Source: Thermococcus kodakarensis KOD1 (GTDB taxonomy: Archaea > Methanobacteriota_B > Thermococci > Thermococcales > Thermococcaceae). Taken from it: a stretch of DNA of 32,000 nucleotides. Location: positions 1,950,001 to 1,982,000 of the forward strand of contig NC_006624.1 of NCBI RefSeq assembly GCF_000009965.1. The letters are read 5' to 3'. Under the pieces are notes generated by a model. The model was not told the origin of the DNA. It worked only from the letters and a program-made list of their open reading frames with translations, and searched no databases. How positions within the stretch are numbered: the stretch's first letter is position 1; every line of letters begins with the position of its first letter. Positions 4,618-20,017 of this stretch are shown here, in pieces. Both the position numbers and the translations under genes were made by a program.

Positions 4618-6759
4618 ATGGGGAGACTGGTCTCGGTAGTGCTGATAGTCCTACTCCTTACTCCCATCGCCTCTGCCTGGGAAGTTCCCGAGCGGGGGAT
4701 AATATACCAGGTCATGGTGGATCGATTTTACGACGGCAACACCTCAAACAACGAACCGTTCTACGATCCGACTCACTCCAACTACCGCCTCTACTGGGGT
4801 GGAGATTTAGAGGGCCTCATTGAGAAGCTCGACTACATCAAGAGCCTTGGAGTCTCAATGATATGGGTCTCGCCGCTCAACGACAACATCAACTCCCTCG
4901 CCTACGGGAGCGCTCCCTATCACGGCTACTGGACGAGGGACTACAAGAGAATAGAGGAGCACTTTGGGGGCTGGGAGGACTTCAGGCGGCTCGTTAAGGA
5001 GGCCAAAAAGCGGGGAATCTGCATAATCGTTGACTACGTGCCCAACCACTCGAACCCGGTGAACTACGGTGAATATGGTGCCCTCTACGACAACGGCACC
5101 TTCCTGACGGACTACTTCAAGGACACGAAGAACGCTGAAGTGAACCCGATTACCGGAATCCGTGAGAACGTCTACCACCACAACGGCAACATCTACACCT
5201 GGAGCGGGATACCGCTTAAGTACGCAAACCTCTATGGCCTCGCCGATTTCAACCAGCTCAACCCGTGGGTGGATTCATACCTCACCGAGGGGGCCATGCT
5301 CTTCGTTGACTCGGGCGCCTGCGGCCTCAGAATAGACGCCGTAAAGCACATGGAGCTCGGCTGGCTCGAGACATTTTACCTCCGCCTCTACTCCAAGGGG
5401 CCGCTCTTCATCTACGGCGAGTACTTCACTCCCTCTCTCCAGAAGGGCGATGACCTCTACGAGTTCTACCGCTACTCGAACGTCTCCCCGGTTCTCAGTA
5501 TTCCAATCAGAGAGGACATTGTGAGGATCTTCGCCTTCTTCGGCGGTCTCGACAAGCTCTCCGAGGAGCTTGGAGATTATTACTCCCACTTCGTCTATCC
5601 AACAAAGGCTGTGAACTTTCTCGACAGCCACGACCTCGTCCGCTTTTTAAACGCTGGCGATAGAAAAGACGAAATTCAGCGCTTTCACATGGCTCTTGCA
5701 TTAACCCTAACTCTGCCGGGGATTCCTGTAATCTACTACGGCGACGAGAGCTACCTCGTTAGCAAGGACGGAAAGGGCGATCCCTACAACAGGCCGACGA
5801 TGGTCTTCGACAACACCACCGAAGCTTCCAGAATAATCCGCACTCTTGGGGGGCTGAGAAAGACCAACGACGCCCTTGTCTTCGGCGACTTCATGACTGT
5901 AACAGCATCCTACGAGACCTGGGCCTTTGAAAGAACCTTTGGGAACCACAGCCTTCTCGTGGTCATGAACAAGGGGCCTGCGGTCAACCTGACTTTCTCC
6001 GTAGACTGGCCCGATGGTAACTACCGCGACGCCCTCTACGGTGGAGAAATGGTCGTGTCGGGCGGGAAGGCTTCTGTTTATCTTCCACGGGACAGCGTCT
6101 ACGTCTTTCACATCGAGGGGGAACAGAAAAAGCCACTTATCGGCTCAATAACTCCCTATGCCGCCCGGCCTGGCCAGGAGATAGTAATCGGAGGTGCAGG
6201 GTTTGGAAAGGGTGGCAAGGTCATAATCGGCGGTAGGGAAGCAAAGGTTCTTTCCTGGGAAGACGGGAAGATAGTCGTTGAAGTCCCCAGGCTGGAGACC
6301 TCGGCGGCCTGGGTGAACGTTACGGTCGTTTCAGACGGAGGGAGAAGTCCCCCGAGGCCTCTCCGCTACTACTCAGGAAACGACGTTCCCGCGCTCATAG
6401 CCCTCAACGCCAGCCTCGTGGGGGAGGTCTCTGGGACGCTGTGGCTTAGCGGCGACCTTCCAGAGCTTGGAGAACCAAGGCCGCTCCTGAAGTCGTCAAT
6501 GGGCTACTACTTCACGGTTGCTCCACTACCAGAAGGCGTGCCGTTCTCAGTCAGGCTCTACGAGGGAAAAGCCTGGGGCGCTTTAAGGCCGCTGAACTTA
6601 ACCCTCTACGGCGTTGGGAACAGAACCGTTACCCTTACTGAGAAACCGCCCGGGGTTTCAGAGGGGCAAAAAGCTGGCCAGAAAGATGTTGCTCTCTATG
6701 CTCTCTCAGTGGTTATGATAGCGGCCTTGATTGCAGTAGTATGGAAACGAAAAGGGTGA
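4618..6759 (+). CDS. cgt: GH13 alpha-amylase-family enzyme, cyclomaltodextrin glucanotransferase-like, with signal peptide and C-terminal membrane anchor
   Basis: 713 aa. GH13 conserved regions are present: DYVPNH, GLRIDAVKHM, YGEYF and FLDSHD. These are followed by an IPT/TIG-like module (ITPYAARPGQEIVIGGAGFG...) and a CBM20-like module (LWLSGDLPELGEPRPL...). The C-terminus is a TM helix plus a KRKG tail. Length and architecture match my recollection of the Thermococcus CGTase. Confidence 0.88.
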   Translation: MGRLVSVVLIVLLLTPIASAWEVPERGIIYQVMVDRFYDGNTSNNEPFYDPTHSNYRLYWGGDLEGLIEKLDYIKSLGVSMIWVSPLNDNINSLAYGSAPYHGYWTRDYKRIEEHFGGWEDFRRLVKEAKKRGICIIVDYVPNHSNPVNYGEYGALYDNGTFLTDYFKDTKNAEVNPITGIRENVYHHNGNIYTWSGIPLKYANLYGLADFNQLNPWVDSYLTEGAMLFVDSGACGLRIDAVKHMELGWLETFYLRLYSKGPLFIYGEYFTPSLQKGDDLYEFYRYSNVSPVLSIPIREDIVRIFAFFGGLDKLSEELGDYYSHFVYPTKAVNFLDSHDLVRFLNAGDRKDEIQRFHMALALTLTLPGIPVIYYGDESYLVSKDGKGDPYNRPTMVFDNTTEASRIIRTLGGLRKTNDALVFGDFMTVTASYETWAFERTFGNHSLLVVMNKGPAVNLTFSVDWPDGNYRDALYGGEMVVSGGKASVYLPRDSVYVFHIEGEQKKPLIGSITPYAARPGQEIVIGGAGFGKGGKVIIGGREAKVLSWEDGKIVVEVPRLETSAAWVNVTVVSDGGRSPPRPLRYYSGNDVPALIALNASLVGEVSGTLWLSGDLPELGEPRPLLKSSMGYYFTVAPLPEGVPFSVRLYEGKAWGALRPLNLTLYGVGNRTVTLTEKPPGVSEGQKAGQKDVALYALSVVMIAALIAVVWKRKG

Positions 6760-6761
6760 AG

Positions 6762-7343
6762 TCAAATCTCCTCCAACAGCTTCTTTCTCTTTTCTTCGTA
6801 CTCCTCCTGGCTTATCACGCCCATGTCGTAGAGCTCCTTGAGCTTCTTCAGCTTTTCGAGCGGGTCTTCTTTCTCTTCCCGAACCTGGGCTGGCTGGTAA
6901 GCTGGCATAGTCCTCGTTACGAATTCCCTCGGCTTCTTCAGAACCCACGTCTCGCTGGTCAGCCCTTTGTTGACGTCTATTGAGACGGGTTCTACGGCTA
7001 TGGCGTTGAGGGCATCCTTTATGGCGTTTATCGCCTTTCTAGCTTCCTCCTTGTCCATCCAGCCAAGCTTGAGCGTTATGTTCTCCTCTCCCTCTATGAT
7101 AAATTCCGAGCTCATTATACCGAGCTTGACCACGACCTGCTCAAGCTTCTGGTATGGGATGGCCTTGAAGTCGTACCTTCCGAGAACTTTCTCGTCGAGG
7201 TATATTATCCTCCTGTCGGTAACGAGGAGCCACTTTGGCTTTTCGATGCTTATCTTCTTCTTTATGGCGAACAGAACCCTCTCATCCGGCTCAAGATGTC
7301 TTTGAACTGACTTTGGAAGTTTGGGGTTTTCCTCGACTCCCAT
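6762..7343 (-). CDS. Bacterial-type PH (bPH) domain protein with C-terminal SHOCT motif
   Basis: The track ORF 6762-7571 is trimmed to the ATG at 7343, which follows GGGTGATACGC (SD). The PH-like core is LEPDERVLFAIKKK...LLVTDRRIIYLDE. The C-terminal LEKLKKLKELYDMGVISQEEYEEKRKKLL is a SHOCT-type helix. The upstream 76 codons look non-coding. Confidence 0.7.
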   Translation of the reverse strand: MGVEENPKLPKSVQRHLEPDERVLFAIKKKISIEKPKWLLVTDRRIIYLDEKVLGRYDFKAIPYQKLEQVVVKLGIMSSEFIIEGEENITLKLGWMDKEEARKAINAIKDALNAIAVEPVSIDVNKGLTSETWVLKKPREFVTRTMPAYQPAQVREEKEDPLEKLKKLKELYDMGVISQEEYEEKRKKLLEEI

Positions 7344-7468
7344 GCGTATCACCCATGATGTCTCTGCGGTTATCGTATATGTACTTTGCTTCCATCCCCT
7401 CTTACAGTGCATCTTTGTTTCTATCTGTGGATTCCTCCAGTTAGGTAGCTCCCATACCAAGTGCACAC

Positions 7469-8415
7469 TTACCCGTCTAATTTCCTGAACCTTTCGGGCT
7501 TGATCTTTCCCAGGGGGTATATCCTCCAAACTCCCTCGACGCCTTTCCTGGGATTCACCCGGGCTGTCCACGCTTCAACTCTCTCCCTCTCTCGTGATTG
7601 AGAACTCAAAGCGAAGGGACCCTTGATATTACTCACGAGCTCCCCAGACTTCAGTTTTTGAACAATATCTTCCAACGGGACTTCTTCCAGCGTCCACGTT
7701 TTGTTGCTCGGGGCTTTTACTTTCGCCGTTGTTGAGACTGTAACATTGCCCGGGTAATGAGTGACCGCCCTAATCGTGCCGTTCTCTCCAGCTTATGAAC
7801 TCCAGTATTACATTCCTCTCAGGAACGCTCATGGGTGAAGGCAGGCGAAGCAAACCTCTGTATCCTAAGGGGGCCTCGTAGAATCCCGTGATCTCCCACT
7901 CTTCCCGTTATTTTGCCTGCTGATATTTCGCTGTCCTTGACGAGTACAAAGTTAACGTAGGTAGTGCTCTTCTTGGGGACTTTTTCAATCGATAGGTAGA
8001 TGCTCTCAATCTCCCCGTTCCTGTAAATTTTGCCCTTGTAGAGGAGTTCCCTGCAATTATCGCAGTTTTTGAAGTCCTTCAGCTTTTCTGGACTTGTTGC
8101 GAGGACTGAATAATTAAAGGGAGTCTTGCAGGTTATCTTGCTTCTCTTCATTCTCGGCCAGATCTTCAGAAACTTGTAAACCTTGAAAGTGTAAATACTG
8201 AGGGTCTTGTTTTCTGGATTGTAAAAAGCGAACTGGTACTTTCTGAACCCGTTAAAACCAGTTTGAGAGGAATAATAAGCGGTAAGAAGTTGCGAGTTTC
8301 CCCTAACTTGCTCCGGAATCTTTTGATAGAGATTGTCCATGCTCTCACTTGGGAGATAAAAATAGCTAAAGAAGAGAAAAACCAAAAAAGCGAGGACGAG
8401 CAACTTTCCCCTCAT
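7469..8415 (-). pseudogene. Fourth copy of the anchored-protein paralogue family, disrupted by two +1 frame changes
   Basis: ORF 7819-8415 (198 aa) aligns with the N-terminal half of the 324-aa paralogue. Examples: MRGKLLVLAFLVFLFF.. vs MKGKLLALAFLIFLFL.., and ..KITCKTPFNYS..KLKDFKNC.NCR.LLY. Similarity continues in a second frame (about 7778-7893, LLRLPSPMSVPERNVILEFI vs LLYLPGMMEDPMKGIILEIL). It then continues in the third frame (7469 to about 7790, KTWTLEEVPLE...VWRIYP vs ETWTLREVPWE...YWRIYP). Confidence 0.65.
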
Positions 8416-8424
8416 TTAACTTTA

Positions 8425-8748
8425 CCCCCAATCTACTAACCTCAACCTGCTCTCTGGCATGCATCCCCAATCATGGATCTCAGTATTGTTTTCATCCCAG
8501 AAGGCTTTAACCTGGCAGTACTGACTGCCGAAATACTTGCCGGAGGCATAACCTTCTGAAGTCACCATGATCTGCACGATTCCTGGCCCTTTTTCAATCT
8601 TCTCGAGTACTTCACGGATAATCTGACCATCTGTTTGCTTGTAAGCAGAGGCACTCCACTCAGGACTTTCTCCACTCCCTTTTAAGGTAATCCCTGGATA
8701 GTATGCGAGTACCTCAGAATTATACTGATCTACAGGCTTTTCCTTTAC
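8425..8748 (-). other. 108-codon stop-free continuation, in frame, directly after the TGA of the 8749-9345 gene
   Basis: Hand translation after TGA (8751-8749) gives VKEKPVDQYNSEVLAYYPGITLKGSGESPEWSASAYKQTDGQIIREVLEKIEKGPGIVQIMVTSEGYASGKYFGSQYCQVKAFWDENNTEIHDWGCMPESRLRLVDWG, then TAA at 8424-8422. There is no ATG near its 5' end. Confidence 0.6.
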
Positions 8749-9345
8749 TCAAAGGAGTTTTGTGTCCTTGTAGGAGGGAAAGACTAGTACGCCGTTCATT
8801 CCGATGCTCCCATAGCAAAGATAATCGTGAGCGAAAAGACTCCGCTTTTCACATACTTCTTTTGACCTTATCCATATTGCCTTGCTCGTTCCAAGCGCGT
8901 AAATCTGGTAAAACGTTTCATTCGGCTTTATAACCTCACTGAGATTCCACCAGTAAGAACCGTTAATCTCATCATCGTACTTCCATCCGAGGGTTTTGAA
9001 GAGGAGTGCCTTCTCGTGGGACTTATAATCCTTTAGAGCACCTAGGTCTAGTATTACCGGAGAGTAATTCACGAAAGCTCTTGCACTCTCTACCTTTTTC
9101 TTTTTTAGCCAGAATTGAGAGGATTGGCTAACAGTGTAGAGCTTGAGCACATTAGTCTCCTCGTTGTAAGTCGCGAACTGCCAGAGAGTGTCCTCGTGAT
9201 AAACTGCTATCAACCCTTCCCCTTTTGGAATTCCTGCGAGTTTGTACGCTCCTTCCGCCGTTGAGAGCTCGTGGTAAGTGTAGGCATTGTACGCGAAAAA
9301 AGAAAAGAGAAGGAGCAGGACTCCAGTAGCTAATGCCCTCTTCAT
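8749..9345 (-). CDS. Third copy of the anchored-protein paralogue family (198 aa as read, probably truncated by a nonsense codon)
   Basis: ATG at 9345 after GGGGTGATCTGGGG. N-terminal hydrophobic anchor MKRALATGVLLLLFSFFAY. Family signature GLIAVYHEDTLWQFATYNEE...LYTV...KKKK...FVNYS. Confidence 0.65.
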   Translation of the reverse strand: MKRALATGVLLLLFSFFAYNAYTYHELSTAEGAYKLAGIPKGEGLIAVYHEDTLWQFATYNEETNVLKLYTVSQSSQFWLKKKKVESARAFVNYSPVILDLGALKDYKSHEKALLFKTLGWKYDDEINGSYWWNLSEVIKPNETFYQIYALGTSKAIWIRSKEVCEKRSLFAHDYLCYGSIGMNGVLVFPSYKDTKLL

Positions 9346-9361
9346 CCCCAGATCACCCCAG

Positions 9362-10336
9362 TTAGCCGCAGTGGTATCCTAATATTCTATCAAAGTAGAT
9401 TTTCTGAATGCTATTGGATGGATAAATTCTCCAGTATGCGTGGAAATTGTTTTCAGTGTTAATCCAGTCTGAGAATACCTCTAGTTTTCCGTCGTATTTG
9501 AAGATCGAGATTGTAAATCTCAGGCTTCCTTTTATTGTCTGCTTGAATCTCTCAGGTTCAATTTTTTCAAACACCTGCTCCCATGGAACTTCCCTGAGAG
9601 TCCATGTTTCGTTTGTCAAAACTTTGAATTTAATGTTGTCCGTAAAGATGACCCCTCCGGGATATATGACCTTTCTCCTTGCGCTTTGATTATCTATCGG
9701 TAGAATTTCGAGAATAATCCCCTTCATTGGATCTTCCATCATACCGGGAAGGTACAGAAGGTCTGCGTACTCAAACGGATCTGAATATCTAATTGTATCC
9801 CCCGAAGATAACTCTAAGGATCCTATTGACAACTCGGAACTTTTGATAACAGCAAGTTCAATGTATTTACTATTATTTTTCTCTTGGTTGTTAACAATAT
9901 CCTGCATTGAAGGGTAAATGCTCTCAATTTCTCCATTCCTGTAAACCCTATCCCTGTAGAGGAGTTGTCTGCAGTTGTTGCAGTTTTTGAAGTCTTTCAG
10001 CTTTTCTGGGTTCGTTGAGAGGGTGGAGTAATTGAATGGTGTTTTGCAAGTGATTTTGCTTTTCTTCATCCTCGGCCAGATCTTCAAGAATTTGTAAGTC
10101 TTAAAAGTGTAAATGCTAATAGTCTTGTTTTCTGGATCGTACAAAGCGAACTGGTACTCTCTAAAACCATCAAAACCAGTTTGGGAGTAATAGTAAGCGG
10201 CAACAAGCTGCGAGTTTTCCCTAACTTGAGCTGGAATCCGATGATAGAGGTTGCTCATGCTCTCACTTGGGAGATAAAAGTAGCCAAAGAGGAAGAGAAA
10301 AATCAAAAAAGCAAGGGCAAGCAACTTTCCCTTCAT
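9362..10336 (-). CDS. Second copy of the anchored-protein paralogue family (324 aa, intact)
   Basis: The track ORF is trimmed to ATG 10336 (MKGKLLALAFLIFLFLFGYFYL), 8 nt after GGAGGTGA. N-terminal TM anchor. Conserved KTPFNYS sequon and a CxxC-like KNCNNC. Confidence 0.7.
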   Translation of the reverse strand: MKGKLLALAFLIFLFLFGYFYLPSESMSNLYHRIPAQVRENSQLVAAYYYSQTGFDGFREYQFALYDPENKTISIYTFKTYKFLKIWPRMKKSKITCKTPFNYSTLSTNPEKLKDFKNCNNCRQLLYRDRVYRNGEIESIYPSMQDIVNNQEKNNSKYIELAVIKSSELSIGSLELSSGDTIRYSDPFEYADLLYLPGMMEDPMKGIILEILPIDNQSARRKVIYPGGVIFTDNIKFKVLTNETWTLREVPWEQVFEKIEPERFKQTIKGSLRFTISIFKYDGKLEVFSDWINTENNFHAYWRIYPSNSIQKIYFDRILGYHCG

Positions 10337-10342
10337 CCATAG

Positions 10343-10365
10343 GTCACCTCCATGAAGTAGCCGAC
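10343..10365. repeat. Copy B of a 23-nt perfect direct repeat GTCACCTCCATGAAGTAGCCGAC (relic of the protease 3' end plus SD)
   Basis: Identical to 11286-11308. It lies in the spacer between paralogue 1 and paralogue 2. On the minus strand it encodes an orphan VGYFMEVTYG preceded by a stop. Confidence 0.85.
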
Positions 10366-10403
10366 TCATGTGTGTATCTTAGTTTCATCTCTTGAAGTAC
10401 TTA

Positions 10404-11279
10404 TTATCCTCCAGACACGACGCATTTTTTCGTGTAGTGGAGAGTTTTTGTAGTTCCATTGAAGTAAATTGTAGTTTTTTCCACCACTGGGCACCTTAAG
10501 TTGGATTCATCAAGCAATTTCGTTGGGAAAGGATTTATAATAATTTCAGAGGCGTTTATGAGAATTTCCTGGCCACTGCAGGGAATTGTGAGGTTCTCCG
10601 GGATTTTCGTCACGTTGATCGTTGGACCACTGAGGTTTCCCACTCTTCCTGACACGTTCCATGTTGGATATAATGCCAAAAGTGTATCATTTCCCCGATT
10701 TTCAAAGGCTACAACCCATGTTGAGTACGTGCACTTTGAGGGTGAGGGCATCACGAGGTAACCCCCAACGAGCGGATTGCCGTCTATAGAAGGCTCCTTT
10801 GCCCTGTCCACAAAGATGAACCTAACGCCGTTGAACTTTTTAAGAATGTCCCTGAAGTTCCAAGTTTGGTTAAGGATTTTCTTTATTTCCTCCCCTTTGA
10901 GGACTCTGACTTTCCCGTCGATTTTTATAATCATTGCCGTTTCGTCTTGGTGGGCAGGAATGTCGTCTATTGAGAAAGAAACCTGACTGTAGTTGAGCCC
11001 TGTTTTTACCTGTCTTTTTTCAACATTTATCCTCTTCACGATGAGGTTTCTTTTCAAAGTTGCAGTTATCTCTGAAAGGGCACCGTTTTCATAAGTTATG
11101 ACCCTCCATTCCCCTTCTTTGTGATATACTACTACTAAGCCCCTCTCCGCGTCCATGCGGTTAAGCATGCAGGATGGTGAACTAAAACAGGCATCTTTCC
11201 TGTAGTTATAGGTTAAAGCTAAAAGTGAAAGGAGAAGGATTGCTATAAACGCTAGAACTCTGAGGAATCTTCCTTTCAT
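10404..11279 (-). CDS. First copy of the anchored-protein paralogue family (291 aa, intact, divergent)
   Basis: The most likely start is ATG 11279 (MKGRFLRVLAFIAILLLSLLAL), 7 nt after GGAGGTGA; it overlaps the protease stop as ATGA (11276-11279). The track start at 11285 is a TTG. Family signature GLVVVYHKEGEWRVITYENG...KTGLNYS. Several NxS/T sequons. Confidence 0.7.
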   Translation of the reverse strand: MKGRFLRVLAFIAILLLSLLALTYNYRKDACFSSPSCMLNRMDAERGLVVVYHKEGEWRVITYENGALSEITATLKRNLIVKRINVEKRQVKTGLNYSQVSFSIDDIPAHQDETAMIIKIDGKVRVLKGEEIKKILNQTWNFRDILKKFNGVRFIFVDRAKEPSIDGNPLVGGYLVMPSPSKCTYSTWVVAFENRGNDTLLALYPTWNVSGRVGNLSGPTINVTKIPENLTIPCSGQEILINASEIIINPFPTKLLDESNLRCPVVEKTTIYFNGTTKTLHYTKKCVVSGG

Positions 11280-14200
11280 TTCCAAGTCACCTCCATGAAG
11301 TAGCCGACGCCTGTGTAAGGCCCAGTTACAGGGACATACATAGAACTGAAAGGCATGTCTGGGATTATACTAGGTTTATGGACTAAAAGATTGTCCGGCT
11401 GAATTGTGATATACCATTCTTCTCTGATAAACTTTGCAAATGCTTCCCAGCAACTTCTAGATACTTTCCATTGCTCTGTCACATGTTCCTCTACTGAATT
11501 TTTGAACATTTCTGTTAATGTCGAATTAAACCGAGCGTAGTCTTGTGGCCAACTTAGTTCGCTATATCTAAACTGCACGTTCATGACAGAATGGGGTGGT
11601 ACTTCTCCGAACCACATTTTGAGAGCATTCATTTTATAATCTTTGATACTATAGTAATTTCTGCCTTTTACATCAAGATACTCATCATAAAGCCAAAATA
11701 CGTAGTGTCCCAATTCGTGCCCTAATGTTTTTCCCCAGTCCACATCTCCAATAGAGATTACAATGTTTTGGTCTGAGAATGCAGAAGCCGCTGAGATTAT
11801 CTTCTTGGACATCATTATATGGAACTCGTGTTTCTGACTCTCAGTTGCATTAGAGAACCTTTTTATCCAATATCCTCCGATAGATGCTTTTGGCCATCCC
11901 TTGTACAAAAGTTCAGTTCTTGTTTGAGGGATTACCCACTTAGTCTTATGTACTCTCACGTCCGCATCATCCCACTGTCTCTTATCGTCCCATATCTGCA
12001 CGCTGGTTATCATCGCGTACCCGTCAGTGTAGTCGTAAACGAAGTCGCTCGCCTTTCTAATACTGTAAACCAAATTTCTCTTGTCTTCCTCACTCAAAGC
12101 CCACTCTGTGGAGACAGTGAGGCTAATCCCGAGAATGTCCCTCTTCGCAGGATCTTTTCCAATGAACAGTTCAACACTGTTCGGAACGCCATCACCGTCG
12201 TAGTCCCCGTTCATGTCGTCGGCTTTTCTGTCACTGGGATCAAAGCGCTCGGTAAATCCATTTGCCTCAAGCTCTTTGTTCAGCTCGATTTCACGGTAGA
12301 AGGGTATCCCGTCTGCGTCGTTGGTGGTTATGACGAACCAGATTTCGCCGTCAGGAGTGTCGTCAGCTGAGGAGTAAGAAACGACAAGGTCTGACTTCAG
12401 GGGCATTTCTCCTGAAGAAGTCACAACTTTGACATCACCTTTAAGTGTCTTTACGTCGTTGCTCATGCTCCCATTGCTCAGAATCTCAGCGGGACTAGAG
12501 GAGCTTGTCGTCGCGACGACCTCGTTTCCCGGTGAAGTCACATCAGTCCCGTAGGTGTTCACGAGGGTGACGTTGATCACCGTTCCATTCTCCAGCCGAA
12601 CCCGAGCAACTTTCAGATTTTTCGGTTTCACTATTGAGAATGCTGTAGTTCCATCTTTCACCGTAACGTCATTAACGCCTTCAATCGTTTTTATGTCGAT
12701 GATCTCACCATTAATTTTAGCCTTTTCAAGTATACTTTCGTATTTCACGTATACCTTGAGGTCTTTGTCCGGCTCTTTTGGCCCGACGTTACAGGAGCCG
12801 TCACCACATCCGCTCAAGTGACCATAGCCGAAATATTTTTCTTCATCCCCCTGATAATCGTCACCGCTCCACGTTCCGGTTTTAAGGTTGTAATGTATTA
12901 CAGCAACGGTTCCTTTGCTAGGGGAGACGTCCATTTCGGTTCTCTTCCCATTGTCATCTCTGTCGTAGAGGTGGAACCGTATGATGGCAACTTCCTTGTC
13001 GTCTGGAACATCAAAGGTAGTTAGTGCAATCGCATAGCTTTGGACGTTGACGAGTGGATTGGTGATTGGAATTATTTTCTTCTCGTAATCATCCTGATTA
13101 TCAGTTAGGAAAAGGGTTTTGGTTTGTCCATTTACGGTAAGCTCCAAACTCATATCCGCTGGATTGTGACCAGCAATTGAACTGTCAACATCGTCCAATG
13201 CCTTCGCTCTTAGGATGTAGACTGTAACCTTCACGTCCCTCAAGGGGTCAACGTCCTTTGAGTCAATCACCCCGTCACCATCCGTGTCATTACTGTAGGG
13301 ATTCATCCCGTACTCCCACTCTAAGGCATTGCACCAACCATCCTTATCGCTGTCCGTGAGAACCGGCACGACTTTCGTCACGGTCTCCCCCACTTTCCCA
13401 TACTCATCAACGGGCGTAAAGCGAATGGTCACGTTCTCGCGACAGTTAGTGTGGTTGTAGATCGGAGCGAGGGGGAACCTGTGCGGGTATCCCGGGTACA
13501 GGCCAGTCCTCCTAAAGCTGAAGCGCCCGACGACTTCCACACTCACGTTCACCCTGTCGCCTTCCGCATCGTTAACGACGATCGTGCCGTTGCTCCACTC
13601 GTTTGAGTACAGGAAAGGTGGAAGATCAACCCTCACAACTTCTGGGGGCGAGTTCTCTCTTACGTAAATGTTCCTCGCCCACGTGGAGTACACCACAGTA
13701 CCGTTGGCATTGTAGAGCTTTATCTCGACGTCGTGGAAGCCCCTGCCCGGCTTCTTCCACCAAAGGTCAAAGCTCCACCTCTTGTAAACGTAGCTGTTGA
13801 GCCTGCTGATTTCCACGCCATCAACGAAGAGCTTGAGGATTACGTCCTTCCTGTTGCCGGAGGGATTGACGACGTTGACGTGGAACCTAATCGGGTGCTT
13901 TTCAACGAGCATCGTGTGGGAAACCCCGGAGATGTACGGCCTGGACTCTGAAACTTTGAGCGTTGTTGAGCTTGAGGACGGGCTTCCCCCGTAGTCCGGG
14001 ACGAACCTCGCCGTGAGGACGTGGCTCCCGGGAGTCGCGCGCCACACGTTGTACATCTTATACTCCCACGTGTGATAAGCGTAGACCGTGACGGCGGATT
14101 TCTTGATAAGCACGCCGTCCAAGTAAAGCTCGATGTGCCCCTTTCCATTTACCGGCCCACTGTTGTCGAGGTTTATTGTGACATGGAGGTAATCGCCCTC

Positions 14201-15046
14201 CTTGGGGGGACTGGGTGAGTAGGAGATTCTCCTGACCGTTACCTTGGGCGCTCCGGTATAAGAGTAAATGTCCGCCAGGTTCCCCTTGTTATCGATCAGG
14301 TAGACCGTGTCCCCGGCATTGTTCAGGATTGCGGACGAGGAAGAACTGGCAACCAGTATTCTCCTGACCTCTCCCGGGCCGAGGCTTACCGAGAACTTGC
14401 GCACGTGGTCTCTCCCAAAAGAGTCGTAGCAGTGGTTCTTGGGGATTGAGGGGGTTTCGTTTACCCAGCAGCGCTCGTTGTTGTAGGCGTAGCTGTCCAT
14501 TAAGTACCATCCAGAGGCGGTGAACGTTGATGAGCCGCCGTTGTAGAGGACTACGTACTCTCCGTTATTGTCGTTTGTGAGGTAGTCCACGTCGATTATC
14601 TGAAGGCCGCGGGAAGTGCTCAGCGGCTCCACGGTGAAGGCTTTTGCAAGGGACTCTTCGGTGGTTTCCCCGGTTTTTGCTTTTCTCAGCGCTCCGAGGG
14701 CTCTCTCCGGGTTTTCCCACTTGTAGGTCTGCATTGCTATTGGCTGGTTGTTGTCGTACCACCATATTTGGAAGATGAGGCTGGTGCCGTTCCAGTGGAT
14801 GTTTCTGATTCTCATGGTGTCTGACACGATTATGTCCCCATTGAGGGTTTCGTTTAGGAGGGCTTCCATGAGTGCTATTAGGGCTTCTCTCTCACCGTCT
14901 TCTGCGGTGGAGAGTTCTTTTAGGGGGTTCTTGAAGAGGGGGTTTATCGTGCCTGCTTTCTCCTCTTGAGTTCCTGCGAGTGTCGTGCCCGGCACTCCGC
15001 TAAGGAGTATCAGCACCACCAGAACAAGGGCCGCTCTCCTCTTCAT
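11276..15046 (-). CDS. Large exported multidomain protein: LTD-like, two CARDB-like modules, Asp-rich Ca-loop linkers, and a C-terminal HExxH..DEY (M6/M64-like) metallopeptidase domain
   Basis: Start is probably ATG 15046 (MKRRAALVLVVLILLSGVPGTTLAG signal peptide) after GGTGGTGGGA. The LTD-like segment at about 14252-14608 reads GWYLMD...LNNAGDTVYLIDNKGNLADIYSY. CARDB-like modules lie at about 13994-14200 and 13700-13894. Asp-rich loops are DSDKDGW...DTDGDGVIDSKDVDP at about 13244-13354 and DYDGDGVPNS at about 12137-12220. HELGH is at 11705-11719, followed by YVFWLYDEY. Confidence 0.85.
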   Translation of the reverse strand: MKRRAALVLVVLILLSGVPGTTLAGTQEEKAGTINPLFKNPLKELSTAEDGEREALIALMEALLNETLNGDIIVSDTMRIRNIHWNGTSLIFQIWWYDNNQPIAMQTYKWENPERALGALRKAKTGETTEESLAKAFTVEPLSTSRGLQIIDVDYLTNDNNGEYVVLYNGGSSTFTASGWYLMDSYAYNNERCWVNETPSIPKNHCYDSFGRDHVRKFSVSLGPGEVRRILVASSSSSAILNNAGDTVYLIDNKGNLADIYSYTGAPKVTVRRISYSPSPPKEGDYLHVTINLDNSGPVNGKGHIELYLDGVLIKKSAVTVYAYHTWEYKMYNVWRATPGSHVLTARFVPDYGGSPSSSSTTLKVSESRPYISGVSHTMLVEKHPIRFHVNVVNPSGNRKDVILKLFVDGVEISRLNSYVYKRWSFDLWWKKPGRGFHDVEIKLYNANGTVVYSTWARNIYVRENSPPEVVRVDLPPFLYSNEWSNGTIVVNDAEGDRVNVSVEVVGRFSFRRTGLYPGYPHRFPLAPIYNHTNCRENVTIRFTPVDEYGKVGETVTKVVPVLTDSDKDGWCNALEWEYGMNPYSNDTDGDGVIDSKDVDPLRDVKVTVYILRAKALDDVDSSIAGHNPADMSLELTVNGQTKTLFLTDNQDDYEKKIIPITNPLVNVQSYAIALTTFDVPDDKEVAIIRFHLYDRDDNGKRTEMDVSPSKGTVAVIHYNLKTGTWSGDDYQGDEEKYFGYGHLSGCGDGSCNVGPKEPDKDLKVYVKYESILEKAKINGEIIDIKTIEGVNDVTVKDGTTAFSIVKPKNLKVARVRLENGTVINVTLVNTYGTDVTSPGNEVVATTSSSSPAEILSNGSMSNDVKTLKGDVKVVTSSGEMPLKSDLVVSYSSADDTPDGEIWFVITTNDADGIPFYREIELNKELEANGFTERFDPSDRKADDMNGDYDGDGVPNSVELFIGKDPAKRDILGISLTVSTEWALSEEDKRNLVYSIRKASDFVYDYTDGYAMITSVQIWDDKRQWDDADVRVHKTKWVIPQTRTELLYKGWPKASIGGYWIKRFSNATESQKHEFHIMMSKKIISAASAFSDQNIVISIGDVDWGKTLGHELGHYVFWLYDEYLDVKGRNYYSIKDYKMNALKMWFGEVPPHSVMNVQFRYSELSWPQDYARFNSTLTEMFKNSVEEHVTEQWKVSRSCWEAFAKFIREEWYITIQPDNLLVHKPSIIPDMPFSSMYVPVTGPYTGVGYFMEVTWK
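11286..11308. repeat. Copy A of the 23-nt perfect direct repeat (authentic 3' end of the protease ORF, codons VGYFMEVT, containing the SD of the next gene)
   Basis: Identical to 10343-10365, with 943 nt spacing, equal to one paralogue unit. Confidence 0.85.
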
Positions 15047-15237
15047 TCCCACCACCAGGAATTTAAAGACAATTACTAAACCACCAAGAACACATAAAAA
15101 TTTTTCGGCTTTCTCCTTTAGTACCTCCAGGGGAACGGAAGCAGCTGTTTATGGTGGAGGGCTCGGGACTTTAAACTGCCTTCAATTCACTCAACAGGTT
15201 TAATATACCCTCCACGAAATTCCACCGTGGTGATAAC

Positions 15238-16263: not shown

Positions 16264-18768
16264 GTGAACGTGCGCGTTTTTGTGGGTGTAATGATTGTGA
16301 TTCTCTTCCTGGCCCCCTTCACCACCGGGGCGGTGAGTCCGCCAACGGGCGCGCTTCAGGGACTTGGAATAAACATCGTGCAAACTTCCAGCATTCAGGA
16401 GAACGGTGCTAACAGCGTAGTTCTGAGGGGCAGGATTGTTAAGGATGGCGTGAACTACACTGTCCTAGTAACGATAACCGAGTATCCAATTAGAACTAGT
16501 GAAGACCTTACCGCCGTGGAAATCGGAGACGTTCCAGAACCAGGAGTCAGCATCGCCCCAGCTCTGAGTAAAGTTCTTCAAAACTCTGGTGGCTCTGAAA
16601 ACGGTGGGGACGTGAGTTTCCTCCTGGGCTACAACGTTTATGAGGCTTCATTTTATCCCACGACTCTAGATGGAAAACCGGTTGAAGATAATGTCACCGT
16701 GAGCGTAAACACGGGCCTGACCTCTTTCTACGCCCTCGACTTCCCCTTCGGAGACCTCAGGATCTCGATTCAGCTTTTGGGAAAATACTTGAACTTCCAG
16801 CGTGATCCCGATTCTTTCCTTTCCACGGCCTGCAACCTCAACCAGAACAACCAGACGGAGTGCCACACGGAGTTCATGGAGGATGAATACAACTCCTACC
16901 TATCATCAATGCTCTCAATGAAGGCCTACGCCTACTCCCAGGCGAGCTCTCTGGGAAAAAGCGTGAGAAATGCCGTTTTGGCGTCCCTCAAGTCCCAGTC
17001 CTATCCCGCGAAGCTCCTTAGCGACTTCCAGCTCTGCGTTCCGGGCTCCGGATGCGTTAAGATTTCCCCCGGTTACCTCGGAACCCTGACGTTCAACGAG
17101 ACCGACGTAGAAAACGGCGCGAGACTTATGTTCACGACGGCCGTTTTCGACAGAAACAGCGACGTCTCGGGAATTCAAGCCTACTACATAGACCCGAGCG
17201 GACAGTACGGGGGAGAGGCGATAAAGCTCCACTCTGCCCAGGAGTTTTACACCTACATGGCAACCCCAAAGAACAGCACTGTGGCCTACGCTTGGATAAA
17301 CAGGTCGAGCACAACCATACCCGTTGTCCTCGATGTGGCGATAAAGCCCGGGCAGTTGAAGGAGGGAAAGGTAAGGGTGGTTTTCGTGGTCAGCGACGGC
17401 AGCGGGAGTCGTTCCAAGGAAATCTCCTGGGATTTTGTGTTCGCTGGAAACTTCACGGATTACTCCCTCGACGTACTCACGCCAAAGGACGGCGCCAGCC
17501 TCAAGCAGATAATTGACGGCCTCTTCTCCGTGCCTCTCTACGCGGAGGTCAGGGGGAGCGGTGCCAAGGATCTCTACGCTCTCGTCACCCTCCCCGATGG
17601 GAGCTCCAAGAGGCTGCCCGTTGAGGGCGGCGAGATACTTGACGTCCTCTACATTAGTGACCCGACCGTGAAGGAAGGGGCGCTCACCATAGGCCTCTAC
17701 GGGAAGGTGAAGGGCGAGGAGAAGCTCTTGGCAAAGAGAAGCGTCCACGTAACCCTTGCGAGTGTTGAAGTGCCCGGAGACGAGATAGACAACGACATGG
17801 ACGGCCTCGTTGATTGCGACGACCCGGACATAGCGACCTGCGACGCTTGTATCATGCAGAAGAAGCTCGAATGGGCTGAATCGCTGATGGAGAGGCATAT
17901 TGACTACATCAACAAGATGATAGAGACCGACCCGGGCATGAAGAGCGTTTACGACCTCTACATTGAACACCTTCGCGAGCTCCATGATCGGTACAAGGAC
18001 GATCCTGACAGAATGGCCAAGGAGATGAACGCCTACATGGAGGAGAAGGTCTACAGGAACCAGGAGATCAAGGGCTACATCTCCATATTTGCGGATGACC
18101 CTGAAAAGCGCCACCAGCTCAGGCAGATAGCCGAGAAATACCGGTACGATCCGATAATGAGGAGGATAAAGATGAGGAGCTTCATATACGAGAACTCCAA
18201 GAGCGAGGCCGAGAGAGAAGCCACGATGAACGCTATCCTCACCGGAATCCTTGAGCCGCCCAAGTGGCTCGTCGGCGGCCAGTACGGTTCTGGAGGGGCC
18301 CTCGACTGGGCCAACTTCGTGGCGAGCAACTTCGAGACCGTTGGAGACACCGTCAAGCTGAAGGGGACCTCGACCGTGAAGATGCTCAGGACGCCCGCAA
18401 ACATTTTTATCGTTGCACAGGACGCGAGGGCATTGATGAAGCAGGCTGAAGAGCTCAAGAAGATGAACCTGCCCGAGAGCACGAAGGTTTCCATAATAGT
18501 GCTCGATGGTGCCACCAAAATCGGAAAGCTCCTCGATCCGACGGGCTACTTCGGGAACATGGCAGATGCAACCATAGGTGCAGTGGTCAATCTCCGCAAG
18601 AAGATAGAGGAGAGGAACCAGGGCTGGTTCACGTGGAACGGCTACGTACTCCACGAGACGGCAAAGCCCGGCATCTACGAGGACTACGAGACGGGCAAGA
18701 AGTTCAAGCGGATTTCCGGCGGGTGGCTTAGTCCCCCAACCTTCGTGGAGGTGAAGGAAAATGAGTAA
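16264..18768 (+). CDS. Exported 834-aa protein of unknown function: beta-rich, sequon-rich N-terminal two thirds, a DNDxDGxxDCDDPD Cys/Asp motif, and a helical C-terminal third
   Basis: GTG start 8 nt after GGAGG (16251-16255). Signal peptide MNVRVFVGVMIVILFLAPFTTGAVSP. Many NxS/T sequons. DEIDNDMDGLVDCDDPDIATCDAC at 17779-17850. Its end overlaps the next gene by 8 nt. Confidence 0.75.
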   Translation: MNVRVFVGVMIVILFLAPFTTGAVSPPTGALQGLGINIVQTSSIQENGANSVVLRGRIVKDGVNYTVLVTITEYPIRTSEDLTAVEIGDVPEPGVSIAPALSKVLQNSGGSENGGDVSFLLGYNVYEASFYPTTLDGKPVEDNVTVSVNTGLTSFYALDFPFGDLRISIQLLGKYLNFQRDPDSFLSTACNLNQNNQTECHTEFMEDEYNSYLSSMLSMKAYAYSQASSLGKSVRNAVLASLKSQSYPAKLLSDFQLCVPGSGCVKISPGYLGTLTFNETDVENGARLMFTTAVFDRNSDVSGIQAYYIDPSGQYGGEAIKLHSAQEFYTYMATPKNSTVAYAWINRSSTTIPVVLDVAIKPGQLKEGKVRVVFVVSDGSGSRSKEISWDFVFAGNFTDYSLDVLTPKDGASLKQIIDGLFSVPLYAEVRGSGAKDLYALVTLPDGSSKRLPVEGGEILDVLYISDPTVKEGALTIGLYGKVKGEEKLLAKRSVHVTLASVEVPGDEIDNDMDGLVDCDDPDIATCDACIMQKKLEWAESLMERHIDYINKMIETDPGMKSVYDLYIEHLRELHDRYKDDPDRMAKEMNAYMEEKVYRNQEIKGYISIFADDPEKRHQLRQIAEKYRYDPIMRRIKMRSFIYENSKSEAEREATMNAILTGILEPPKWLVGGQYGSGGALDWANFVASNFETVGDTVKLKGTSTVKMLRTPANIFIVAQDARALMKQAEELKKMNLPESTKVSIIVLDGATKIGKLLDPTGYFGNMADATIGAVVNLRKKIEERNQGWFTWNGYVLHETAKPGIYEDYETGKKFKRISGGWLSPPTFVEVKENE

Positions 18769-20017
18769 GTTCACCGGCCTGCTCCTGATACTCATCCTAC
18801 TTGGTGCGGCTTACATCTATTACACGAATCCTCACATAATCGAAGACCTCACGAAGATGAAGGACAGCTTCCCCAACGGCTTCGATTCGGGTGGGACAAC
18901 TACCCATTCTTCGGGCGGGAGTGGTTTCTCTGAAACATCTTCTGGAAACCATAGCGAGTCCTTCCCCGGCGAGAAGGGGTGGGTTGATTCGGACAACGAT
19001 GGAAGGAAAGACGTTTACATCGGGGACGACTACGCCGAGGTTCCAACAACCAACGGCTCGGTACTCTTCGTTGATCGGAACAAGGACGGGAAGATAGATG
19101 CCATCTACCTCGACACGACCGGCGACGGGAGCTACGACACTGCCTACCTCGACGAGGACTACAATGGGAAGACCGACACGTGGAGAACGACTTTCAACGG
19201 GGTTGATAGCTACGCGTGGGACATCACCGGCGATGGGATTCCCGATGTCTATGACTCCAACGGGGACGGGAAGGTTGACGCCTGGGACACAAACTCCGAT
19301 GGAATAATAGACGAGCGCGACGTTGATTACGACGGAACCCCTGATCTACACGACTACGACTTCGACGGGGTCTTTGACGAGTTCGAGAGGAACGTTACTC
19401 TCTACCCTCCGGAGAGTGCGAACGGGACATCGGGGGCTTTCCTCTGCCCGGACAACAAGGACGACGCCTATCGGCTCTTCGTCCAGGCCTACAACAACGT
19501 CACTTCTCTTCAATCTTCGGGGGCGAGCGATGAGGAAATTCAGGAGGCCTACGCTAAGTATCAGAAGGCCAGGGCTTGCTACGAGTCCTTCCTGACCTCA
19601 ACGACCTCAGCCGCTTCCAGTTCAGGGATGAGGGAGATCAAGACCGTTACCCTCGATACGGAAGGAACGGCAGGTGTGAAGTTCTCCACGGGCGAGCTGA
19701 AGGGCTACAACGAGATAAGCGATAACGTGTGGGAGGACGTTGATCTCGTGGCAGAGCCGTGGTGCGTTGAGTATCCGGCTTTGCTAGGACACTGGATAGA
19801 CCTCGGTGAGGGGAACCTCGATACCTTAGACCCAAGCGAGATACCTACCTCAGGCTATCCAACGGGTGAGATTGCCGAAGAGATCAAGATGGGCCACGTC
19901 TACGTGAACCTCAACTCCGATGGAACACTTACAGCCTTCGAGCTCGTCTCCCACGAGAAGACCGGCGACTGCTCCCACAGGATAACGATACGGTACTCAA
20001 ACCTCGGGGGGAGCTGA
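18761..20017 (+). CDS. N-terminally anchored 418-aa protein with nine tandem DxDxDG-type calcium-loop repeats; the C-terminal anchor appears frameshifted off
   Basis: The TM start is MSKFTGLLLILILLGAAYIYY. The nine loops between 18986 and 19381 are DSDNDGRKD, DRNKDGKID, DTTGDGSYD, DEDYNGKTD, DITGDGIPD, DSNGDGKVD, DTNSDGIID, DVDYDGTPD and DYDFDGVFD. See the finding on the G6 run at 20006-20011. Confidence 0.75.
   Translation: MSKFTGLLLILILLGAAYIYYTNPHIIEDLTKMKDSFPNGFDSGGTTTHSSGGSGFSETSSGNHSESFPGEKGWVDSDNDGRKDVYIGDDYAEVPTTNGSVLFVDRNKDGKIDAIYLDTTGDGSYDTAYLDEDYNGKTDTWRTTFNGVDSYAWDITGDGIPDVYDSNGDGKVDAWDTNSDGIIDERDVDYDGTPDLHDYDFDGVFDEFERNVTLYPPESANGTSGAFLCPDNKDDAYRLFVQAYNNVTSLQSSGASDEEIQEAYAKYQKARACYESFLTSTTSAASSSGMREIKTVTLDTEGTAGVKFSTGELKGYNEISDNVWEDVDLVAEPWCVEYPALLGHWIDLGEGNLDTLDPSEIPTSGYPTGEIAEEIKMGHVYVNLNSDGTLTAFELVSHEKTGDCSHRITIRYSNLGGS

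Follow-up and report, generated by a model that had tools for sequence, protein, structure and literature searches.

Within the 32,000-nucleotide (nt) stretch of the Thermococcus kodakarensis KOD1 chromosome analyzed here (NC_006624.1, positions 1,950,001–1,982,000; hereinafter the window, to which all coordinates not assigned to another locus refer), five genes form one co-directional block, as had been proposed by a previous sequence-only reading of this DNA. All five, and every feature described below unless noted otherwise, lie on the minus strand. The first gene, BIG (11276–15046), codes from an ATG for a multidomain, protease-like protein of 1256 residues that is predicted to be exported, the same length at which it is annotated in T. 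kodakarensis assemblies; an alternative GTG start at 15055 would yield 1259 residues. It is followed by four paralogous genes, P1–P4, whose products are likely to be tethered to the membrane by their N-termini (hereinafter the partners). Across related loci, the catalytic half of the BIG-type protein and the partner encoded next to it are exchanged between strains as one cassette, and it is on this behavior that our functional proposal is built.

P1 (TK2177; 10404–11279; 291 residues, subfamily C) and P2 (9362–10336; 324 residues, subfamily A) are intact, while P3 and P4 are decaying, in agreement with the earlier count of two and two. P3, a member of subfamily B, has a single in-frame stop at codon 199 (8749–8751), leaving an open reading frame (ORF) of 198 codons (8749–9345); the gene annotated as TK2175 (198 residues) is the N-terminal part of P3. 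Its full relic spans 8422–9345, with the homology to a 306-residue T. profundus orthologue running on in frame to 8440, such that 110 more codons past the stop still align with it. P4 is a subfamily A pseudogene with an ORF of 198 codons (7819–8415) and a full relic at 7448–8415, which has suffered at least two frame changes and is spread over three frames (8415–7867, ~7886–7587 and 7792–7448); its C-terminal remnant reaching down to 7448 explains the left boundary chosen in the earlier reading. Three public T. kodakarensis assemblies (loci L002, L003 and L005) are 100% identical to the window over 12–19 kb, BIG included.

The C-terminal zinc-protease-like domain

The igalysin-like C-terminal domain of BIG, protC (11276–12250; 324 residues), contains the putative zinc-binding motif HELGHYVFWLYDEY, already recognized in the earlier reading and located at 11678–11719, in which HExxH is followed by six residues and then D-x-Y. 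We recovered ~53 relatives of protC among 5.8 billion proteins, and those with a named source are nearly all from Thermococcus. A multiple alignment of 15 homologues shows the H, E, H, D, E and Y residues to be invariant throughout, along with the HELGH and DEY elements as a whole, a later Met, and a terminal GPYTGV.Y segment. This Met (11582–11584, within PHSVM) lies 34 residues past the motif Asp and is a candidate for a Met-turn. The family typically ends in TGPYTGVGYFMEVxWG, with BIG itself ending in …GYFMEVTWK.

No database match of this domain reaches its threshold. The window protC has no match in Pfam or NCBIfam, the peptidase M64 family (PF09471) included; four of the 15 homologues do hit PF09471, with E-values of 0.024 or weaker (two listed scores, 12.8 and 14.3 bits, fall short of the gathering score of 26). 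Sequence searches of the PDB with the protC profile, the partner profile and the whole BIG protein returned nothing significant. The best PDB match of a protC homologue, itself non-significant (E 0.47), is the IgA protease of Thomasclavelia ramosa, with the homologue motif AHELGHYVFWLGDEY aligning residue for residue with AHEFGHGLLGLGDEY of the protease. The AlphaFold model has a mean predicted local distance difference test score (pLDDT) of 52.8: a β-α-β-β core and the active-site helix bearing HExxH are confidently modeled, and the region of the Met is of low confidence. In Foldseek searches with this model, karilysin, MMP-11, fragilysin and ADAM33 are among the best-ranked structures, all with non-significant E-values of 0.02 or weaker. 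Where the metzincin-type motif (HExxHxxxG) has its Gly, the window and the majority of homologues have Trp, and P0010 alone in the alignment of 15 has Gly. Taken together, protC appears to be a highly diverged metzincin-like domain to which, among known families, the igalysins are probably closest, and the invariance of its catalytic residues suggests that it is an active enzyme.

A further feature of the family concerns its short versions of ~200 residues (e.g., L001 9986–10612 and L015 9974–10624). These all begin at a Met that is kept as an internal Met (…I-M-M-P/S-K-x-F) in the full-length proteins, at alignment columns ~386–395. This conserved position could mark a recombination boundary or serve as an internal start site.

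The probably anchored partner family

A single family profile matches all four paralogues, as expected from the earlier claim of common descent. However, their relationships are uneven: P2 and P4 share 67% identity (E 8e-82), whereas P3 is linked to P2 with an E-value of 1e-5 and to P1 with an E-value of 3e-6. The direct P2–P1 comparison is not significant, and these two are joined through P3 and the family profile. In Kyte–Doolittle plots each of the four shows one hydrophobic segment, at the N-terminus; with no obvious cleavage site following it, we infer that these proteins are N-terminally anchored with their bulk facing outward. When 1.84 billion representatives were searched exhaustively with the family profile, 26 proteins were obtained, and a word-indexed search recovered 44, of which every source-named member is from Thermococcus or Palaeococcus. 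The full-length versions measure 290–340 residues. We found no match for them in Pfam, NCBIfam, PHROG, PADLOC or PDB sequences, and P2, which is modeled by AlphaFold with a pLDDT of 91.6 as one N-terminal helix followed by three mainly β sub-domains, has no significant Foldseek match in the PDB or among the viral structures of BFVD. The original impression that these small proteins belong to no recognized family thus stands.

The NYS tripeptide pointed out in the sequence-only reading is present in all four paralogues, and among 29 family members its Y and S are invariant and its N nearly so. As the Ser is never replaced by Thr in these 29 proteins, a structural role is suggested at least as much as an N-glycosylation sequon. 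The M-[KR]-G-[KR] start noted in the same reading is, in contrast, not conserved across the wider family. On inspection, we also discarded the idea that it represents a class III (pilin-like) signal peptide: the residues after the Gly/Ala do not fit such a signal, and most members lack the motif altogether.

Within subfamily A the membrane-proximal part is far better conserved than the distal part, mean identity being 70% at residues 21–140 and only 32–37% at residues 181–324. Four nearly invariant cysteines characterize this subfamily, namely C97, C119-x-x-C122 and C323 in P2 numbering, and either a pair of disulfide bonds or a metal site could be made from them; in P1 and P3, which are more divergent, the cysteines lie elsewhere. 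The ratio of nonsynonymous to synonymous substitution rates (dN/dS) of the partner genes against their orthologues is ~0.1–0.18, with dS near saturation (P2 giving 0.105 against its L006 orthologue). These values mark them as real genes evolving under constraint.

The gene junction and probable translational coupling

The stop codon of BIG and the start codon of P1 overlap as ATGA (11276–11279), as had been read from the sequence before. Seven nucleotides upstream of the P1 start, within the Met-Glu-Val codons of BIG, lies the Shine–Dalgarno sequence GGAGGTGA (11287–11294). This is the canonical complement of the 3′ end of 16S rRNA; hence, the Met-Glu-Val codons would double as the ribosome-binding site of the partner. 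The junction is conserved at the nucleotide level as …TTC ATG GAG GTG xxx TGG GGA TGA, with the ATGA overlap being seen in 27 of 39 distinct junctions and GGAGGTG in 25 of the 39. The retention of these terminal codons as the ribosome-binding site of the next gene explains the invariance of that end of the protein. This arrangement supports the translational coupling of BIG and P1 but does not imply a fixed ratio; of the earlier suggestion of stoichiometric co-expression, the coupling is retained and the stoichiometry is not.

A second, defunct junction is found between P1 and P2. A 42-nt fossil of a protC 3′ end (10333–10374; HT*VGYFMEVTYG*) shows 80% DNA identity to the BIG/P1 junction (11263–11316), and its GGATGA overlaps the P2 start codon. 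The 335-codon ORF for P2 is an artefact of this upstream fossil, and its true length is 324 residues.

Linkage of the two families across Thermococcales

We assembled the loci for synteny analysis by exact-protein look-ups, three of which were without a match; a scan of genome contigs contributed six loci from metagenome-assembled genomes and none from isolates. Both families occur together in every isolate genome retrieved. T. profundus codes for a 798-residue BIG homologue with ~10 partner paralogues and an orphan catalytic half. The linked pair is also present in T. nautili, Palaeococcus ferrophilus, Thermococcus sp. Bubb.Bath and many metagenome contigs, and one further Thermococcus sp. 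has a linked locus with a split gene containing the lamin-tail domain (LTD). Every Thermococcales-type locus with enough flanking sequence has a protC-type gene immediately followed by a partner gene, nearly always with the ATGA overlap, in keeping with the synteny anticipated at the outset, and scanning all the retrieved loci with profiles bears this out. The flanking genes differ from species to species, so the module appears to move. Three observations named beforehand as telling against a dedicated pairing, namely homologues of the partners unlinked to the protease, loss of the catalytic motif and a known unrelated fold for the partners, were not encountered.

The linkage is further structured by protease subtype. 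For 40 protC C-termini, 300 nt or more of sequence is available downstream; at the default profile threshold, 21 of them have a gene of the partner family directly next, and almost all the misses are of a subtype ending in …GYYLRVxWG. For the subtype ending in …GYFMEVxWG, the partner family is next in 21–23 of 24 cases by our tally, whereas six of eight …GYYLRVxWG versions are followed by an unrelated signal-peptide family of ~230 residues. The partner family is, accordingly, predicted by the protease subtype.

The second partner family comprises proteins of ~200–240 residues that have no Pfam match and whose signal peptide, which looks cleavable, leads into V-x-V/L-W; its members include L017 4311–5033, L028 2948–3682, L026 5115–5780 and L029 9057–9788. 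Another arrangement is seen on the metagenome contig Ga0190367_1001328 (L030 1–14530; G+C fraction 0.41), which bears five tandem overlapping gene pairs, each coding for a signal-peptide protein of ~570–760 residues and a protein of 290–366 residues with HE(L/F)GH…(D/E)EY. The signal-peptide proteins have a conserved C-terminus (…RRGVLV) and a variable N-terminal part, and the protease-like copies are mutually 30–39% identical. The contig carries a more distant version of the protease–partner pairing.

Exchange of the catalytic half with its partner

Cassette exchange is seen between two T. nautili strains, in which the locus occupies the same site and the flanking DNA is 97% identical. This identity ends at codon 292 of the protease gene and returns just past the partner gene, with the intervening 1.8 kb having been replaced and being unalignable past codon 292. 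The two protC domains are 94% identical over residues 25–105 but 45% identical over the aligned residues 201–324, and their partners, which belong to different subfamilies, are 30% identical over 160 residues.

Probable displaced pieces of such cassettes are found within the arrays. Orphan catalytic halves of ~209 residues are present in T. profundus and Thermococcus sp. Bubb.Bath (L001 and L015), where they are intact, keep all the motif residues and have their stop codon overlapped by a partner start, which reads ATGA in the former species and GTGA in the latter. Their identity to the main copy of their own genome is 72% and 40%, and copies of other species are closer to them. Fossils of protC 3′ ends are likewise seen ahead of partner genes in L008, L009, L012, L014 and L015, the window having just the 42-nt fossil upstream of P2.

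The composition of BIG offers a parallel. Its G+C fraction at third codon positions (GC3) is 0.72–0.82 at residues 1–590, ~0.45–0.6 at residues 600–1020 and 0.33–0.43 beyond, which marks it as a compositional chimera. The first breakpoint, at about residue 600, where GC3 drops to 0.43–0.55, falls immediately past the Asp-rich repeats described below, and the homology of the 798-residue T. profundus protein with BIG starts at BIG residue 587. The second drop lies between the codon windows 991–1050 and 1021–1080 and coincides with the T. nautili recombination breakpoint. The exchangeable catalytic half of BIG would accordingly be approximately 11276–11990 (from about residue 1020–1030 to the end), the segment with GC3 of 0.33–0.43. 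Such cassette behavior favors a toxin/immunity or protease/inhibitor relationship of the two proteins over one in which the partners are substrates.

The N-terminal trunk of BIG

BIG has one hydrophobic segment, at its N-terminus, and no other. With its Kyte–Doolittle maximum of 2.27 at residue 5, this segment (MKRRAALVLVVLILLSGVPGTTLA; 14975–15046) looks like a cleavable Sec signal (…TLA/GT). It precedes a lamin-tail domain (PF00932; 14255–14617, residues 147–267 when numbered from the GTG start), detected with an E-value of 2.5e-11 and 44.3 bits against a gathering threshold of 34.3, and the exported, lamin-tail-bearing protein envisaged earlier is thereby upheld. The two CARDB-like immunoglobulin (Ig) modules of the same proposal fared less well. 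The first (13931–14248) is recovered below threshold, with CARDB at E 0.002 (18.8 bits against 22.7) and Big_3_5 at E 3.8e-4, and the second has no CARDB match. Homologues do carry CARDB (PF07705); "Ig-like" is the safe designation for the BIG modules and "CARDB" a resemblance only. The Asp-rich loops (13250–13435), which had been taken for Ca-binding elements, are weakly thrombospondin-type-3-like (NCBIfam MtsD, E 2.2e-5), and PF18884 is carried by homologues.

Ahead of the 537-residue or 495-residue protease gene of T. nautili lies a short ORF (L012 9667–9987 and L043 9525–10004) that is homologous to the BIG signal peptide and first ~100 residues. The T. nautili gene thus looks like a BIG without its middle, i.e., the LTD and Ig modules, or one split by a frameshift.

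Genomic surroundings

The partner genes are poorer in G+C than their surroundings, with fractions of 0.43 for P1 and 0.40 for P2 against 0.52 for the window. A promoter and terminator scan of the window, using bacterial models not designed for archaea, remained at chance level. A viral or defense origin was considered and set aside, there being no PHROG or PADLOC match, no relatives in IMG/VR, no BFVD fold match and neither a tRNA gene nor long repeats at the flanks of the island.

Immediately past the P4 remnant and also on the minus strand is a gene coding for a protein with bacterial-PH (bPH_3) and SHOCT domains (6762–7343), which we did not see beside the module elsewhere. On the other side, two genes on the plus strand (16264–20017) are divergent from the block and code for an 834-residue signal-peptide protein and a 418-residue protein. 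They have no family match except for weak acidic-repeat and EF-hand-like ones, their G+C does not depart from the genomic level, and in other species the module is not flanked by them.

In a related strain (L004, Logan assembly DRR723568), compared over 6500–15000, the flanks differ by ~2–3% from the window, with up to 52 mismatches per 500 bp. However, there is one mismatch across 7000–12500, with the bPH_3/SHOCT gene lying within the near-identical tract, and very few across 13500–15000, while 12500–13500 is divergent; a 1-nt gap at 14204 in this assembly splits BIG. The pattern could be a mosaic from recent transfer, an island sweep or a mixed assembly.

Proposed function and its alternatives

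We propose that BIG and its partners constitute a horizontally mobile surface module, almost confined to Thermococcales, in which a polymorphic-toxin-like protease is paired with cognate, tethered inhibitor or immunity cassettes, a reading to which we assign a probability of about 45%. Under this proposal, BIG would be exported through its signal peptide, with its N-terminal two thirds (the lamin-tail domain, Ig-like modules and Ca-binding repeats) acting as a presentation or adhesion stalk, and its last ~330 residues as a divergent igalysin-like (M64-like) metzincin coordinating zinc through the His, His and Asp of HExxHx6DxY. As the partner gene starts within the BIG stop and its ribosome-binding site would reside in the final codons of BIG, both proteins are expected to be made together. 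The catalytic half and the partner are swapped between strains as a single cassette, and the paralogue array would have arisen from what is displaced in the process and accumulates downstream, namely catalytic halves, partner genes and fossil junctions. The partner would then be the cognate binder of its catalytic variant, and, being co-translated, surface-tethered and co-replaced with protC, would most likely function as a tethered inhibitor or immunity protein shielding the surface of the producer, with the extra paralogues potentially providing cover against the variants of neighbors. The anatomy, the coupling signals, the conservation, the exchange of cassettes and the covariation of protease subtype with partner family are observed directly, while catalysis by protC, its physical association with the partner, any resulting inhibition or immunity and the nature of the target belong to the proposal. 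A more specific and tentative version would see an archaeal polymorphic effector system, in which the secreted metzincin attacks the surface of competing Thermococcales, the tethered cassette-encoded protein neutralizes it and the cassettes are traded, with surplus immunity paralogues being hoarded; the same parts could instead constitute a lock-and-key allorecognition pair.

Several observations weigh against the inhibitor/immunity proposal. The exchanged C-terminal domain is always of one family, unlike in classical polymorphic toxins, and its assignment to the metzincins combines motif spacing with sub-threshold matches and a low-confidence model, with the motif Gly being replaced by Trp in the window. 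On the side of the partners, no known inhibitor is similar to the confidently modeled P2, the proteins are large for inhibitors at about 300–335 residues, their subfamilies are conserved across species at 50–74% identity, and in T. kodakarensis two of the four are inactivated. Moreover, the co-divergence of the catalytic half with its partner is not significant in the eight pairs compared (Spearman 0.27, p 0.17).

Some of the same features might be accommodated by a role in anchoring: BIG lacks a membrane anchor and every partner has one N-terminal hydrophobic segment, such that the partners might dock the secreted protease on the membrane of the producer or hand it substrates, forming a proteolytic complex at the cell surface that serves peptide nutrition or remodels the surface, with the paralogues as alternative docking or specificity subunits. 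The tight coupling of the genes, the conserved membrane-proximal and variable distal parts of subfamily A and the fermentation of peptides by Thermococcales (PMC8416519) are all compatible with this; yet a patchy, island-like spread at varying sites with frequent pseudogenes ill suits core nutrition, and neither the strain-level replacement of the catalytic half with its partner nor orphan halves would be expected of a housekeeping complex. We therefore regard it as unlikely. That the anchored paralogues are instead pro-proteins, from which the metzincin frees or activates factors that are secreted or act at the surface, could draw on the conserved co-expression, the multiplicity of paralogues per protease gene (up to ~10 in T. 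profundus) and a conserved segment just outside the membrane common to all partners. It leaves the orphan catalytic halves, the unrelated family following another protease subtype and the joint replacement of catalytic half and partner without explanation, and no conserved candidate cleavage site was identified, which makes it quite improbable in our view.

Within-species polymorphism confined to the catalytic half and the partner, the predicted surface exposure of both proteins and the adhesion-type stalk on BIG would also be expected of a kin-recognition system, in which the BIG C-terminal domain binds the matching partner of neighbors as a key does a lock and so tells self from non-self, with catalysis being secondary, and similar hypotheses have been raised for VARTIG, a different module of Thermococcales (PMC8416519). 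The invariant HExxH..DEY and Met, however, argue for selection on catalysis, and a tethered partner made in the ligand-producing cell fits self-protection at least as well; a recognition role to which catalysis is secondary accordingly strikes us as quite improbable. Finally, the pseudogenization of P3 and P4, the low G+C fraction (0.40–0.43 against 0.52) and the split of BIG by a 1-nt gap in one related strain assembly might be taken to indicate a decaying acquired island that is functionless in T. kodakarensis, with the junction being conserved merely by common descent. Against this stand the intact BIG, P1 and P2, the family-wide invariance of the catalytic residues, the dN/dS of ~0.1 and the retention of the junction and ribosome-binding site in 25–27 of 39 distinct junctions, in light of which we consider it very improbable.

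If the effector-system version were true, both protein families would be new; the module lies in a genetically tractable model archaeon. As gene deletion and competition experiments are routine in T. kodakarensis, the hypothesis is directly testable. Archaeal conflict and self/non-self systems are barely characterized, and VARTIG, the sole published Thermococcales module of this style, is without an assigned activity. In the present locus, the catalytic motif can be recognized, the cognate partner is clear and the exchange of cassettes is directly supported by comparison of genomes. The locus adds both a very divergent branch beside the igalysin metzincins and a confident-looking fold without a PDB or viral-structure match. 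A full-text literature search, whose coverage did not extend to the 2019 catalogue of archaeal toxin systems (Makarova et al., mBio), found no paper discussing TK2174–TK2178.

Comparison with known systems

The structure of the T. ramosa IgA protease established it as an igalysin-family metzincin, in which zinc is held by two His and an Asp seven residues past the second His, a Tyr is proposed to act as a switch and a Met-turn follows (PMC12237041). In comparison with the igalysins (MEROPS M64; T. ramosa IgA protease; PDB 9ekk, 9qdh and 3P1V), protC has the same unusual spacing, HExxH-x6-Asp-x-Tyr, with HELGHYVFWLYDEY in the window corresponding to HEFGHGLLGLGDEY in the IgA protease. The protC family has the invariant Met 34 residues past the Asp, and both BIG and the IgA protease are large multidomain surface proteins. 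They differ in that protC has no significant sequence similarity to the igalysins, shows the Gly to Trp change in the motif, is C-terminal rather than central, possesses its own invariant terminal TGPYTGVGY segment and has a fold that is not confidently modeled.

A functional precedent for the pairing is offered by the KLIKK peptidases of Tannerella forsythia, secreted enzymes with adjacent genes coding for membrane-anchored specific inhibitors, the potempins (PMC9890683). As in our module, these are secreted multidomain peptidases, metzincins among them, with an adjoining gene for a surface-located partner and several pairs per genome (PMC9890683). However, potempins are lipoproteins of 98–132 residues, the genes of which are upstream of the peptidase (PMC9890683), whereas the partners described here have 290–335 residues, an N-terminal helix as the probable anchor and genes that lie downstream with a start/stop overlap. 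We found no sequence or fold relationship between the two sets, and inhibition by the present partners is putative.

Polymorphic toxins are defined by the replacement of their C-termini from standalone cassettes, and the classical systems have been described as rare in archaea (PMC3482391). As in such systems (e.g., CDI and Rhs), the secreted multidomain protein of the module keeps its trunk while its C-terminal end can be replaced, its gene is immediately followed by the cognate one, and orphan cassettes with their partner genes come further downstream. Strain-level replacement inside conserved flanks and island-like loci with signs of horizontal transfer are also common to both. The module is distinguished by its exchanged ends all belonging to one HExxH family (53 relatives detected) as opposed to many unrelated toxin folds, and by partners that are large, membrane-anchored and outward-facing by prediction, unlike the small, cytoplasmic classical immunity proteins. 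It further lacks RHS, filamentous-hemagglutinin or known trafficking domains, and its hosts are archaea. Toxicity and immunity are putative for the module.

A similar organization is seen in VARTIG (Makarova et al. 2021, PMC8416519), which comes from the same lineage and likewise has a 5′ gene for a large secreted Ig-domain protein followed by genes for small, mostly membrane proteins. It, too, forms variable, recently acquired islands, with C-terminal recombination and a polymorphic-toxin-like organization (PMC8416519). The supplement of that paper has no T. profundus locus tags and names T. kodakarensis in the species list only (PMC8416519). BIG was judged to fall outside VARTIG, as protein family, terminal motif and location on the T. 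nautili chromosome all differ: the arCOG07710 proteins of VARTIG end in D[ND]NxxxG[GD] (DNNxxxGG) and have no HExxH domain, in contrast to BIG with its …GYFMEVTWK terminus, and the T. nautili VARTIG locus is at 1.63 Mb, compared with ~1.836 Mb on the same chromosome for the locus described here. On the strength of these comparisons, the module is best seen as analogous to, yet distinct from, VARTIG and as built from two uncharacterized protein families.

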